64,000 nucleotides of DNA from Eledone cirrhosa (Eukaryota). The notes under the pieces are model-generated. The model ran no database searches. It was not told where the DNA came from and worked only from the letters and a program-made list of their open reading frames with translations. The translations under genes were made by a program, and so were the position numbers. Below are positions 4,533 through 59,990 of this stretch, in pieces. The stretch spans positions 14,570,001-14,634,000 of the forward strand of contig OZ024765.1 in NCBI GenBank assembly GCA_964016885.1, read 5' to 3'. Each line of letters opens with the position of its first letter. Positions within the stretch are counted from its first letter, which is position 1.

Positions 4533-5158
4533 CGATTTGACTAAGCTTCCACTTGTATCATTTTCTCCTAGATTTAATAATTAACTGATTAATTTAATTA
4601 GACAATTCTGTTGATTGGTTAATTATTTGTATTGGTTTAATAACATCTGGTTGCGAGCTTTTATTCAGAATGTTAGCGGAAATTAGAATATTTCCTTTGT
4701 TAACACTTTGAATATACCCGCCAAAATTGGGGGTCGCCACCCTTGCTGGAAATAACCCGTGACAACTAAATGTACTGTGGCTCGCTTATAGCAGCAGCAT
4801 TTAGCTGTCCACTCCGGTTATTTGACACAACGGGATACCTGTTGATGAAATGAATCCTCTGTTCGATCATGGAATACCACGACCGTGCCTGTTACGTAAG
4901 TTGGATATTTGATTTCGGATTCATAGAAACAATTTAGACGTATATAGTTTGATTTGTCCGGGTGTATCTTTTTAACCTGTTAGTTTTTTCGTTACTTTGG
5001 TATTGTGTGTTAGGTTTTGCCTACCACAATGTTCAATTTGTCAAGCTATTTAAACGTATAAGGACCTACCCGTATTGAGTGCTTTGCTAACTCATTCATA
5101 TTGTAGGTCGACTTTGCTTGCCCACAGCCAAAGATCCGATTTGACTAAGCTTCCACTT
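4533..5158 (+). mobile_element. 604-bp unit with 22-bp terminal direct repeat and HHR-like motif (PLE/retrozyme-like)
   Basis: CGATTTGACTAAGCTTCCACTT at 4533-4554 and 5137-5158. TTGATGAA-ATGAATCC(4850-57)...GGATTCAT(4917-24)-A-GAAAC. Confidence 0.6.
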
Positions 5159-6759
5159 ATATATATATATATATTATATATATAATATATATATATATAT
5201 ATATATATGTAATATATATGTATATATATTATATATAAAATATATATATATATATATATATATATATAATATATATGTATATATATTATATATATATATT
5301 ATATATATAATATATATATGTAATATATATGTATATATATATATTATATATATATATTATATATATAATATATATATGTAATATATATGTATACATATTA
5401 TATATATATATTATATATATAATATATATATATATATATGTAATATATATGTATATACATTATATATATATATTATATATATAATATATATATATATATG
5501 TAATATATATATATATATATTATATATATATATATATATGTAATATATATGTATATATATTATATATATATATTATATATGTAATACATATGTATATATA
5601 TTATATATATATATTATATATATAATATATATATATATATATATTATATATATATGTAATATATATGTATATAAATATATTATATATATAATATATATAT
5701 ATATATTATATATATATATGTAGTATATATGTATATATATTATATATATATATTATATATATAATATATGTATATATATTATATATATATATGTAGTATA
5801 TATGTATATATATTATATATATATATATTATATATATAATATATATATATATATTATATATATATATGTAGTATATATGTATATATATTATATATATATA
5901 TAATATATATAATATATATATATATATTATATATATATATGTAGTATATATGTATATATATTATATATATATATTATATATATAATATATATATATATAT
6001 TATATATATATATTATATATATAATATATATATATATATATTATATATATATATATATATATATATCTTATATATATATATTATATATATAATATATATA
6101 TATTTTATATATATAATATATATATATTATATATATATATTATATATATAATATATATATATATATTATAATATATAATATATATATATTATATATAATA
6201 TATATATATATATATTATATATATAATATATATATATATTATATATATATATATTATATATATATTATATATATATATATATATTATATATATAATATAT
6301 ATATATATATGTATATATATATATTATATATATAATATATATATATTTATAATATATATATATATATATATAATATATATATATATTTATATATAATATA
6401 TATATATGTTTATATATAATATATATATATATATTTATAATATATATATATATATTTATAATATATATATATATATTATATATAATATATATAATATATA
6501 TATATATATATATATATAATATATATATATATAATATATATATATATATTTATAATATATATATATATATATATATATACATATTATATATATAATATAT
6601 ATATATATATATATATTTATAATATATATATATATATACATATTATATATATTATATATATATTTATAATATATATATTCATATATTTATAACACATACA
6701 TGCATACATACATACAAACATACACATACACACATATATCTATATCTATATATATATAT
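5159..6759. repeat. Degenerate (TA)n tract
   Basis: Direct reading. Confidence 0.95.
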
Positions 6760-7040
6760 TGTTATTCTTTGGGAGGGTCATGTTGCCAATAAGAAACACA
6801 CGCACCAGTTGCTTTCACTTTAATTTATTATAAATTAAATTAAAATTAATAAATTTAGGAATTTATAAATTTCCGGTTGGCTGGTTGGTTCCACAACCAG
6901 ACGATTGTTCATATATTGTCAAAGTTCTTTCCTCACACATTCTGTGACCTCTTCAGAGCCTGGGGATTATTTTCTTTGTTTTTGTGCCTCTCCTTTGTTC
7001 TGTCCTACGCCATCTTGTTTTTTTCAAATTCAGCAACGAA
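6760..7040 (-). mobile_element. PLE family A copy
   Basis: Reverse complement of about 300-542, including the HHR (stem II C>G change). Confidence 0.8.
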
Positions 7041-7299
7041 ATATATATATACATTTATATACATATAAATATATATATATAATAATATATATATGTATAA
7101 ATATATATATACAATAATATATATATATATAAATATATATATACATACTTTAATACAGTCATATACATAGATACACACATAGAAATACATACATAAAAAC
7201 ACATCTATACATACAATATATATATATATATATATATATATATATATATATAGACATACACACACAGACACATCCACATATATACATGTATATACATAT

Positions 7300-55197: not shown

Positions 55198-58100
55198 TAT
55201 ATATATATATGTAAGTATATAGATATATATAGTTATATATATATATATATATATATATATGTATATACATATTCACCAAGACACCCTCCACCACCACCAC
55301 CATCAACATCCCACCACCACCACCACCACCACCACCATCATATATCAATATATTTAACTATAAGAATTCTTCTCGAACTTTCAAACATGTTCCAAAGATA
55401 CTCTTCAGGCAAAACTACCGTCAGTGATACTCTAGTGTGATGGAGGGAATTGTGTCTTCTACCTCTCTCTCCCTCCCCCTCTCTCTCTATCTATCTATCT
55501 CTCCTTCTCTTTCTCTCGCATTCTCTTAATCTCGCTACATCATTATTTGCTCTCCTCACTCTCTGTATATATATATATATATATCCACCACCCCACTCTC
55601 AAGAGCGTGAAACTAATAAACCTTTGTTCGTACTGCCTCTCTGTTTTGTACGCGTTCAACTTTTTACTATATATATATATATATACATATATATATACAT
55701 ATATATATATATATATATACATATATATATACATATATATATATATACATATATATATACATATATATATACATATATATATACATATATATATACATAT
55801 ATACATATATATATACATATATATATATATATACATATATATATACATATATATATATATATACATATATATATATACATATATATATATATACATATAT
55901 ATATACATATATATATACATATATATATATACATATATATATATACATATATATATATACATATATATATATACATATATATATATACATATATATATAT
56001 ACATATATATATACATATATATATACATATATATGTATAGGTATATATAATTATACAAATATATATATATATATATATGTTGTGAAGGTGTGCATTCTTT
56101 CCCGCCTCGCTCTTGCTATATACATGTAATATACACACACGCACACACGTGTATGTGTATATATATATATATATATATATATATATATATATACACACAC
56201 ACATATATATATATATATATATATATATATACACACATATATATATATGTATACACACATATATATATATATATATATATATATATATATATACGCATAC
56301 ACACATATACATATACATACATACACAATTGTGTAGAAGGTTTTATAGCCGCTGGGGTGTATAACATGATGTTGCACTCACGCGTATATACACACACACA
56401 CATACATTATATATATGTATATATATATATATATATATATATATATATATATATATATACACATATATAAATATATACATATACATATATATAAATATAT
56501 ATATATACACATATATATAAATATATATATATACACATATATATAAATATATATATATATATAAATATATATATATACATATATATAAATATATATATAA
56601 ATATATATATATATATATACACATATATATATATATATAAATATATATATATACATATATACACATATATATATATATAAATATATATATATATATATAT
56701 ATATATATATATATATATATATATACATATATATATATATATAAATATATATATATATAAATATATATATATATAAATATATATATATATATAAATATAA
56801 ATATATATAAATATAAATATATATAAATATATATATATAAATATATATATATACACATATGTATAAATATATATATATATGAAAATATATATATACACAC
56901 ATATATATAAATATATATAAAGAGAGAGAGAGACTATATAGATAGATACTTAGATGCCATAACAAGATGAAAGGATGCTTAAGGCATTTAAGAAGTACTT
57001 AGATTAATATTTCCTTTTTACATTTACTTCTCTCTCTCTCTTTTTCTTTTTCTGACCTTTCCTTTTCCCTTCGTTTTTAAGTTAACCACGTATGCATAGG
57101 CCCCCACCTCCGAACAGAAATATATATATATATATATATATATATATATATATATATATACGTACTATAAATATATATATATATATATATATATATGCGT
57201 ACTATAAATATATATATATATACATATATATATATACGTACTATAAATATATATATATATACATATATATATATACGTACTATAAATATATATATATATG
57301 TTTATATATATATATACGTGTATATATATGTGTGTGTGTGTGTGTGTGTGAATACATATATATATATATATATATATAATAAATATATATATTTATATAT
57401 ATATATATATATAAATATATATATATATATATTAACTTATGTATACAGTATATATACATACATACTATAAATGTATATATACGTTTATATATATATATAT
57501 ATATATATATATATATATATATATATATATATATATATTAACTTATGTATACAGTATATATACATACATACTATAAATGTATATATACGTTTATATATAT
57601 ATATATATACGTACTATAAATATATATATATATACATATATATATATATACGTACTATAAATATATATATATATATGTTTATATATATATACGTGTATAT
57701 ATATATATATATATGTGTGTGTGTGTGTGAATACATATATATATATATATATATATATATAATAAATATATATATTTATATATATATATATATAAATATA
57801 TATATATATATATATAGATATATATATATAAATATATATATATATATATATATTAACTTATGTATACACTATATATACATACATACTATAAATGTATATA
57901 TACGTTTATATATATATATATATATATATACACTCACAAATATATATATGTGGATGTCTAATTTATATATATCCAATTACAGCTGTAAAAATGCCATTAT
58001 AGATGCTTGTGTGCATGCATATATAAGATTACATGGCGTATTTTCTCATACTATTACACATCTAATGAAATGTTTGGTTCTACCGTCTGCATGATTTGTT

Positions 58101-59593
58101 TTCAGGCCTTACTTGGTATATAGGCAGGTATATATATGTGGAAAAACTTCGATCACACACATCCTCTTGCCTGCCAGCTTCTTATATATATGTATATATA
58201 TATATATATGTATATATATATATATATATATATATATATATATATATATATATGTATATATATATATGTATATATATATATATATATGTATATATATATA
58301 TGTATATATATATATATATATGTATATATATATATGTATATATATATATATATATGTATATATATATGTATATGTATATATATATGTATATATATATATA
58401 TGTAAATGTATATATATATATATGTATATATATATATATGTATATATATATATGTATATATATATGTATATATATATATGTATATATATATATATATATA
58501 TATATGTATATATATATATATATATATATATGTATATATATATATATATGTATATATATATATATATGTATATATATATGTATATATATATATGTATATA
58601 TATATATATATGTATATATATATATATATGTATATATATATGTATATATATGTATATGTATATATATATGTATATATATATGTATATATATATGTATATA
58701 TATATGTATATATATATATATATATGTATATATATATATATGTATATATATATGTATATATATATGTATATATATATGTATATATATATGTATATATATA
58801 TATATATGTATATATATATGTATATATATATATATGTATATATATATGTATATATATATGTATATATATATGTATATATATATATATATATATATGTATA
58901 TATATATATATGTATATATATATATATATGTTTATATATATATATGTATATTTATATATATAGGTATATATATATATATATACATATATGTATATATATA
59001 TTTATATATATAGGTATATATATATATATACATATATGTATATATATATAGGTATATATATATACATATATATATATGTATATATATATATATATTTATA
59101 TATATAGGTATATATATATACATATATGTATATATATATATATATTTATATATATACATATATATATATGTATATATATATATATATTTATATATATAGG
59201 TATATATATATACATATATGTATATATATATATATATATATATATATTTATATATATAGGTATATATATATATACAAATATGTATATATATATTTATATA
59301 CATAGGTATATATATATATACAAATATGTATATATATATTTATATACATAGGTATATATATATATACATATATGTATATATATATTTATATATATAGGTA
59401 TATATATATATACATATATATATATATGTATTTATATATACATATATATATGTATATATATATATACGTATATATATAGGTATATATATATATATATATA
59501 GGTATATATATATATATATATAGGTATATATATATATATATATATATATAGGTATATATATATATATATAGAGAGAGGTATATATATATATAT

Positions 59594-59990
59594 AGAAAGG
59601 ATGAATATAAAATGACAAGTGCTTTGTTAAAAAAGGAATTTATTAGGTATTGACATATGTTTCTGTAACAGACCGAATACCTATGTATCGCTGCTTGCGT
59701 TTATCCAAAATCTCTGAAGAAGTGACAACTGATTATACATTTGCTCTCGAATACTTGCTAACATTATATGATTACGCAAGCAGCGATACATAGGTATTCG
59801 GTCTGTTACAGAAACATATGTCAATACCTAATAAATTCCTTTTTTAACAAAAGCACTTTCATTTTATATTCATCCTTTCTACATTTCTCCGGAATATAAT
59901 TTATACTCGTTGAGCAAACCTGCACGTACGCTGTTCATCTCTAACGTAACGATATATTATCACTACATTATTGATAACCTGAAATTTTAT
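59594..59990 (+). mobile_element. Family U fold-back with long-stem-II HHR-like motif (59714-59826)
   Basis: Arms 59594-59700 and 59774-59881. CTGAAGAA-GTGACA...TGTTAC-A-GAAA-CATATG-TC, then AATAAA. Stem I is poor. Confidence 0.7.

Follow-up and report, generated by a model that had tools for sequence, protein, structure and literature searches.

A duplicated bulged hairpin in the leaders of Hydra-clade Penelope-like elements of Eledone cirrhosa, a putative signal for reverse transcriptase

The stretch analysed here (the window) comprises 64,000 nucleotides from Eledone cirrhosa (assembly GCA_964016885.1, contig OZ024765.1, positions 14,570,001 to 14,634,000). It belongs to a 3.0-Gb animal genome, and (TA)n microsatellites and short repeats together form a mosaic along it. 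A first-pass annotation of its letters had noticed that several repeat families share a motif with constant ends and a variable interior, and had proposed it as a second cis-acting module of Penelope-like elements (PLEs), beside their hammerhead ribozyme. We found that the motif is real and larger than first described, being a bulged hairpin and one of two matching hairpins in the leader. Its consensus consists, in order, of RCUC, a stem-loop that varies, a 3' bulge of 2 nt whose first base is U, then GAGY and RC; the outer stem pair alternates between A-U and G-C, so that GCTC..GAGCRC versions exist, and the interior ranges from 6 to 50 nt. Hairpin 1 is the copy nearer the hammerhead and hairpin 2 the copy beyond the TA junction; site 1 and site 2 are the two classes of insertion end, one by each hairpin. 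The copies in the window are as follows.

49190 to 49210, plus strand: hairpin 1, family C (sequence and pattern scan; intact element at locus L011)
49124 to 49165, plus strand: hammerhead-like core of family C, upstream of that hairpin (sequence)
49029 to 49248, no strand: family C fold-back insertion; left end site 1 (tail-less), right end site 2 (tail with hairpin 1)
44262 to 44282, plus strand: hairpin 1, family C (pattern scan)
44421 to 44441, plus strand: hairpin 1, family C (pattern scan)
48865 to 48885, minus strand: hairpin 1, family C (pattern scan)
30218 to 30238, minus strand: hairpin 1, family C, inside fold-back 30180-30359 (site 2 + site 1)
12117 to 12138, plus strand: hairpin 1, family D, short truncated copy (sequence)
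12352 to 12373, minus strand: hairpin 1, family D, inside fold-back 12293-12768 (site 2 + site 1)
30047 to 30068, plus strand: hairpin 1, family D, inside fold-back 29782-30125, whose site-1 arm extends further 5'
16859 to 16884, plus strand: hairpin 1, family B (sequence; intact tandem units at loci L348 and L349)
7977 to 8002, minus strand: hairpin 1, family B, inside fold-back 7931-8114
18362 to 18387, minus strand: hairpin 1, family B (pattern scan)
45484 to 45509, minus strand: hairpin 1, family B, inside fold-back 45438-45630
33879 to 33899, minus strand: hairpin 1, B-like copy (scan)
29017 to 29043, minus strand: hairpin 1, family M, inside fold-back 28965-29384 (tandem units at loci L350 and L351)
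23404 to 23465, plus strand: hairpin 1, family G, with a long apical part (scan; a read-through copy elsewhere has hairpin 2)
8365 to 8400, minus strand: hairpin 1, family K (sequence; no read-through copy found)
24164 to 24192, minus strand: G-C variant hairpin GCTC..GAGCGC, absent from the first-pass annotation (scan)
59904 to 59916, plus strand: shortened hairpin that lacks the apical stem; the family is Hydra-linked and another of its copies conserves this form
23651 to 23674, minus strand: damaged hairpin with a broken 5' arm, following a hammerhead-like core at 23812

At the seven main sites the letters are exactly as first reported. Among the weaker sites, the one at 59904 stands as a shortened hairpin, conserved in a second copy, and that at 23657-23678 is a damaged minus-strand copy; those at 5067-5082 and about 31045 are unconfirmed, each being single-copy in the 1-Mb sample described below and lacking a proper arm.

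The pattern ACTC-N(8-38)-TWGAGTRC occurs 14 times in the window, at 13 distinct places, compared with a mean of 0.19 and a maximum of 2 in 100 dinucleotide shuffles, so that the concern that the motif might be no more frequent than in shuffled sequence falls away. Wider counts were made in a 1-Mb sample consisting of the window and 97 further stretches of this genome (18 neighbouring and 79 at arbitrary positions; 1,034,000 bases), where a structural descriptor gave 105 hits, or about 100 per Mb, versus 7-16 in 10 block shuffles. These hits form 19 clusters, 14 of which have a microsatellite junction at most 130 nt downstream, and their bulge reads TT in 65 cases, TA in 23, TC in 11 and otherwise in 6. 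Because the copies are repeats, a control was also run at the level of families: 189 of 192 GC-matched look-alike classes contained 0-2 families and the motif class contained 12, with AT-only look-alike classes reaching 29.

Pairing was tested with the anchors set on sequence alone, one representative per untranslated region (UTR) family and 2000 shuffles. The first three apical pairs of hairpin 1 were formed in 34/35, 31/33 and 23/27 families, each matched by 0 of the 2000 shuffles, and the apical pairs of hairpin 2 in 30/32 (mostly C-G), 19/30 and 12/18. On a tree of 39 proteins, which did not include the published Hydra reference proteins, the two sides of the first pair changed together, in compensatory fashion, in 7 of 7 independent contrasts (p 0.016). 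A MAFFT alignment of 29 of 35 hairpins from metagenome loci (those with interiors of 8-15 nt) and four from the window had 99.5% of its 190 cells paired, with 26 double changes versus 6.9 in shuffled alignments; the outer pair was G-C in 29 and A-U in 4, the Y of GAGY changing with the upstream R. G-U occurred 12 times versus 2 for A-C/C-A, which favours the sense strand. In the metagenome leaders, the lower stem had a pairing probability of at least 0.5 in 34 of 38 copies of hairpin 1 and 31 of 42 of hairpin 2. Between families, the flanks and linker could not be aligned and the arms were near invariant. Rfam returned no match at threshold: for the window, the 150 best of 711 listed matches were all sub-threshold microRNA models, and the family B leader gave a single match with an E value of 4.2. 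A coding explanation was rejected, since interior lengths of 9, 10, 14, 24 and 50 nt break the frame and both hairpins precede the ATG. Readings of the hairpin as a selenocysteine insertion sequence (SECIS) or a splice site were likewise rejected by inspection for want of a matching core or consensus; with respect to the Naiad-type SECIS, the hairpin has no RUGA/GA core with apical AAR, and the reading frames (ORFs) of families B, C and M are open under the standard code, with no in-frame UGA.

The hairpins track the ends of insertions. Among 184 microsatellite-bounded 3' ends in the 1-Mb sample, 78 lie at -12 to +1 of hairpin 1, 89 at the tail end and 17 elsewhere. TA-rich words fail to explain these positions, because most TAT/ATA words lie elsewhere (28 near the hairpin versus 117) and most ends lie near the hairpin (81 versus 13). 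A second hairpin just past the tail end was predicted, and the pattern used for it, a tail end with RCTC within 12 nt, was matched 419 times in family B (nested matches counted), 293 times in M and 154 times in D, with 0 matches in reversed controls. The 3' arm, which was outside the search pattern, was present in 20/20 B loci (overlapping loci included), 18/20 M loci and 19/20 D loci, and in longer read-through copies of all three families a Hydra ORF lies behind hairpin 2. One read-through copy of family G, within a 1.86-kb unit, has a full hairpin 2 three bases past the junction. Metagenome ends behave similarly, 10 of the 20 mappable ones lying within 12 nt before a hairpin and 8 within 4 nt; several of the others are reference-divergence breaks. 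Contigs of two runs, whose kind was not recorded and which are not independent of the genome, have loose TA ends at L011 2939 and 3002-3006, corresponding to sites 1 and 2, and direct full-ORF copies ending at site 1 occur at L188, L201, L251 and L147. Just beyond site 2 of family C (L011, about 3005-3015), a pyrimidine run ending in TAG is a possible 3' splice site in the leader. An abundant family with end classes at -64, -8 and +113 relative to its hairpin is seen at 341-541 and 6760-6956 of the window and at L113 4050-4480.

Inverted (fold-back) insertions obey a mixed-end rule: 35 of 36 with both outer ends classed combine one site-1 and one site-2 end (50% expected, p 5e-10). A second pass gave 37/38 mixed pairs, besides 6 pairs with an unclassed end, and 19/20 outside the chromosome of the window; family C fold-backs were mixed in 5/5 cases despite having only a hairpin-2 remnant. 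In 39 mixed pairs, the two arms had about the same reach in 27; the site-1 arm was the longer in 10, where one locus enters twice, and the site-2 arm was the longer in 2. Barring later deletion, a site-1 arm of greater reach cannot have been copied from the site-2 cDNA, which favours two separate primings. Fold-back centres recur at set positions in each family (in the window, for example, at 28965-29384 and 12293-12768), about -60 in B, -175 in M and -152 or -179 in D, and the family M copy of the window (28965-29384) is centred on a short palindrome.

The same leader architecture was found beyond this genome. An alignment of 62 Hydra-like proteins yielded 77 metagenome loci (from the best 80 of 482 confirmed stretches) which, with 16 contigs of metagenome-assembled genomes (MAGs), made 93 loci. 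Among flanks of at least 100 nt, the strict descriptor was found in 35/63 5' flanks and 24/83 3' flanks, versus 1 and 3 on the antisense strand and shuffle means of 0.14 and 0.27 (at most 2). With a relaxed descriptor, the 35 leaders extending from hammerhead to ATG had two hairpins in 23 cases, one in 10 and none in 2 (by UTR family, 17, 5 and 2 of 24), versus 4 on the antisense strand and a shuffle mean of 0.22. The order is hammerhead, hairpin 1, linker, hairpin 2, ATG. The linker measures 36-57 nt in 26 families and, in this genome, 52-82 nt in four; hairpin 2 ends about 16-30 nt before the ATG in most metagenome leaders and lies 44-87 nt before it in families B, M and D. Among the six published Hydra consensus sequences, read by eye, the hairpin is clear in three coral and sea cucumber entries (Hydra-2_Amil, Hydra-2_Ajap and, twice at the 5' end, Hydra-1_Ajap), partial in two and not seen in Hydra-1_Obim; the Hydra-1_Ajap consensus starts two bases upstream of hairpin 1, and its last part is a TA patch about 30 nt past the hammerhead. 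A single-protein metagenome scan and a viral scan returned no relatives. In PLEs outside the Hydra clade, 29 GIY-YIG loci whose linker is of the CxxC type, most of them from one or two families, included one with the anchors, 1078 nt away, and six 8-mer searches of the Naiad and Chlamys consensi, where line breaks can hide matches, found one full hairpin, in the middle of the Naiad_Mmer UTR, which is probably a chance occurrence. One hammerhead family of the window (44661-44794, 33613-33747 and 9230-9362), with two end classes about 70 nt apart, has no hairpin in its tail and may use another signal. Hydra-clade contigs L247-L262 lie inside bacterial MAG or symbiont assemblies and most likely represent contamination from animal hosts. 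An identical 21-nt interior is shared by hairpin 1 of family M (29017-29043) and hairpin 2 of metagenome locus L195 (335-360), the flanks being dissimilar.

The first-pass annotation had called the carriers unrelated. This holds for their DNA only, since families B, C, D and M all belong to the Hydra clade of PLEs, whose signs are RW[KR], DKT, a CxCx5C, CxxC and CxH arrangement plus a GIY-YIG domain at the C terminus, as described in the text of Craig et al. 2021 (PMC8557442). Their proteins are 41-55% identical (the ORFs of B, M and D coming from read-through copies), and protein identity among families sharing the motif is 36-55%, too far diverged for the carriers to be one recent family; an intact ORF between two pseudo-long terminal repeats (pLTRs) is present in the tandem family C locus L011. 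RWR is found in B and C, which have no GxKF/Y, and RW in M and D; DKG is replaced by DKT, with SDKT in all four; and the C-terminal GIY-YIG with its CxCx5C linker, CxxC and CxH is present in B, C and M, family D being seen only as its N-terminal 488 residues. The Pfam GIY-YIG match is weak (E 0.067). The carriers also show a predicted pLTR hammerhead, (TA)n targets, partial tandems and inverted copies. Families G and K, in which no ORF was seen, are assigned to the clade from the motif. A structure model of the family B protein (P0121) has a pLDDT of 92.9 and, as its best solved fold, telomerase reverse transcriptase (weak; TM score about 0.3-0.4), a predicted resemblance that is generic to reverse transcriptases (RTs) and says nothing on the hairpin; a search by sequence found no solved structure of a PLE relative. 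The first-pass annotation missed three points: that another copy lies past the TA junction, that the motif is restricted to the Hydra clade and that both copies are linked to the two classes of insertion end.

That annotation had placed the motif between the hammerhead and the TA junction, which is correct where a copy reaches the hammerhead; family B, however, has no CUGANGA core (0/35 hits). Its units have helix I and II arms, read by eye, around UUGAGAA, which likely represents the U3-A8 variant core reported from Schistosoma (PMC4209133). This predicted ribozyme (L348, minus strand, about 3640-3760; window 16800-16840) has a long helix II and a palindromic loop III, and searches for CUGANGA miss it. 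Intact elements form head-to-tail arrays at L348 (C1:91474000-91487300), L349 (C1:437199000-437211000), L350 and L351, with a period of about 3.54 kb for B and 3.9 kb for M and open ORFs of 717-809 residues, and many family C endonuclease copies are 100% identical; from these intact ORFs and identical copies, the families in arrays and family C look recently active. The family G unit (L353, C4:105921071-105924095; window 23005-23544), 1.86 kb long and repeated, has a hammerhead and both hairpins without a Hydra ORF, and seems to be non-autonomous and retrozyme-like. Family K (window 8144-9198, minus strand) has a unit of about 850 nt between two tail-like copies, with a long-helix hammerhead and a third tail copy at 8144-8284; no ORF similarity was found in this unit. 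Fragments of a long interspersed element (LINE) ORF at 44828-45402 and, as a tandem array of about 78-nt units, at 32300-33400 are, we presume from their protein motifs, RTE-like.

We consider it probable, with room for doubt, that each hairpin binds the RT-endonuclease and sets the start of reverse transcription 3-10 nt upstream, both target strands being primed on one RNA. In such a scheme the protein, possibly a dimer with one subunit per hairpin, would hold one RNA by both hairpins and nick both strands of the (TA)n target, and one cDNA would be primed from each strand on the short UA-rich patch before each hairpin. A start-setting hairpin, lying 3' of its start, would not be copied in that event, so that the site-2 cDNA would carry hairpin 1, which is the known optional 'tail', and the site-1 cDNA would carry none; the tail would be the stretch between the two starts, beginning with hairpin 1. 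Head-to-head joining of the two cDNAs, often at one shared palindromic spot, would yield an inverted repeat with a tail at one end only, and tandem or circular RNA would restore both hairpins for the next round. The double priming itself, in which two identical hairpins of one RNA are gripped by a dimer of the RT-endonuclease, each of its subunits uses one nicked target strand as primer just upstream of its hairpin and the cDNAs anneal at a palindrome, is a tentative proposal that we hold at somewhat less than an even chance; the dimer is taken by analogy from PAc, an Anolis element discussed below.

Several observations weigh against this scheme. RT initiation is deduced from DNA ends, and the asymmetric arms of fold-backs could result from later deletion. 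Hairpin 2 covaries weakly, its first pair being matched by 232 of 2000 shuffles; the three central stem pairs are invariant and so uninformative on pairing; when folded alone, 2/7 window hairpins have the lower stem in register (A-U versions being weak); and hairpin 1 of family M has a pairing probability of 0.07 in context. Family C, which is young and active, has only a 3'-arm remnant at site 2 in the 25/25 leaders examined. The commonest end class of family w353/F5 (21 ends at -64) has no canonical hairpin behind it, its other ends being 10 at -8 before a canonical hairpin and 6 at about +113, and the hairpin-2 pattern search gave no match for K and F5 and only a chance match for the 59714 family. 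Finally, the legible fragment of Poseidon-clade RNA in the supplement of PMC11167929 shows no RCUC/GAGY hairpin, so that the published mechanism applies here as an analogy across clades.

Instead, the GIY-YIG endonuclease might read the motif at the DNA level, in a donor duplex or in single-stranded cDNA, and cut a few bases upstream to resolve a transposition intermediate. Such recognition would account equally well for the end positions, AGYRCT is a degenerate palindrome of which all four YR forms occur, the tail is credited to endonuclease-mediated resolution in the text of PMC8557442, and the Drosophila virilis tail is cited in PMC11167929 as needed for endonuclease recognition of plasmid DNA. 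We nevertheless regard this as a minor possibility, because the Y of GAGY changes with the upstream R and the apical stem covaries, because the wobbles favour the sense strand 12 to 2 whereas the cDNA is antisense, and because in vitro mapping placed the PAc starts at the borders of the tail (PMC11167929). If only site 2 were a start, hairpin 1 or a protein bound to it could be a roadblock that halts fold-back or second-strand synthesis, whose product is there joined to the target; the insertion would again have a tail at one end and none at the other, self-priming has been proposed for PLE inverted repeats (PMC3846280), and it would give the nearly equal arms of 27/39 mixed fold-backs. Two identical cDNAs meeting at a palindrome would give equal arms as well, however, and the longer site-1 arms in 10/39, in some of which the site-2 arm is too short to reach the hairpin, and the direct full-ORF copies ending at site 1 make the roadblock improbable.

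A role as translational autoregulation operator or hammerhead folding aid, with the end positions a side effect of protein occupancy, would suit the short distance from hairpin 2 to the ATG in most leaders and the finding that the PAc hammerhead cleaves only with protein bound (PMC11167929). The greater distance in B, M and D, the retention of both hairpins in the family G unit (one locus) and the tie of ends to hairpins within a few bases make it quite improbable as the main role; the binding site may have it as a second function. A hammerhead partner had been one of three functions offered for the motif by the first-pass annotation; as the main role it is not supported, since 130-170 nt separate hairpin 2 from the core and insertion ends are tracked by both hairpins. 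Another of the three, an internal promoter, is not supported either, given the covarying pairs and the sense-strand G-U bias. The motif could also be a promoter element that the pLTR carries in its DNA, or be shared by ancestry and have no function. This would fit with the promoters that pLTRs are thought to hold (PMC11167929, PMC3846280) and with the membership of all tested carriers in one clade, but the covariation largely refutes it, the arms staying near invariant between unalignable flanks and linkers, the interiors ranging from 6 to 50 nt and the carrier proteins being 36-55% identical; we give it very little credence. The second cis-acting RNA module is supported, and the remaining option, a signal recognised by the RT, fits best.

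Short structured elements that recruit their own RT are known from the stem-loops of the eel UnaL2 LINE and its short interspersed element (SINE) and of the R2 3' UTR, which act in cis in target-primed reverse transcription (TPRT); such stem-loops are placed 5' of a terminal start, and each daughter receives a copy of them. The Hydra hairpins are likewise conserved structures at a fixed distance from the RT start, as judged from the ends and with two families as exceptions at one site, but they differ in lying 3' of an internal start, in being present twice and in being left out of the cDNA that each would initiate. In hepadnavirus epsilon, the spacer hairpins of diversity-generating retroelements and the protein-binding stems of telomerase RNA, a bulged stem-loop positions the RT on its template; the Hydra hairpin resembles these in form, with no sequence or Rfam match. 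A further parallel comes from PAc, a Poseidon-clade PLE of Anolis (Frangieh et al. 2024, PMC11167929), in which, according to the text of that study, RT starts at two internal sites that lie 3' of the hammerhead and bound the tail, RNA 3' of the starts is required, both target strands are extended, a dimer is predicted and the RNA signal is left unnamed. The PAc starts differ in lying inside the ORF, in an AC-rich stem-loop (PMC11167929). Craig et al. (PMC8557442) covered the clade of the carriers without describing these hairpins, and the word 'hairpin' occurs 0 times in their main text, where the tail is credited to resolution by the endonuclease. A description of the motif was not found in the open literature searched, subscription papers and Repbase and Dfam notes being outside that search. 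From sequence comparisons, then, the hairpin pair is apparently an undescribed, clade-wide, putative RT-recruiting RNA element, unusual in its position 3' of the start and in its duplication.

The choice of internal starts, the optional tail and the inverted ends of PLEs have been a puzzle since the 1990s, and one in vitro study mapped two starts, though not the signal. For one clade the likely signal is a small hairpin that covaries, occurs clade-wide and lies a few bases from each class of end, which makes the question experimentally tractable, the intact recent elements at L011, L348 and L351 offering material for binding and TPRT work. The mixed-end rule (35/36) constrains any model of integration, and annotators can use the motif to mark the boundaries of Hydra elements and of their non-autonomous derivatives, very abundant as these are in this genome. 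If the double-priming rule is true, this one rule would yield the optional tail, the inverted repeats joined head to head and the dependence on tandem or circular templates. The hairpin would then be a 20-nt address, portable, through which those mobile elements that are most closely related to telomerase could carry out site-directed reverse transcription.

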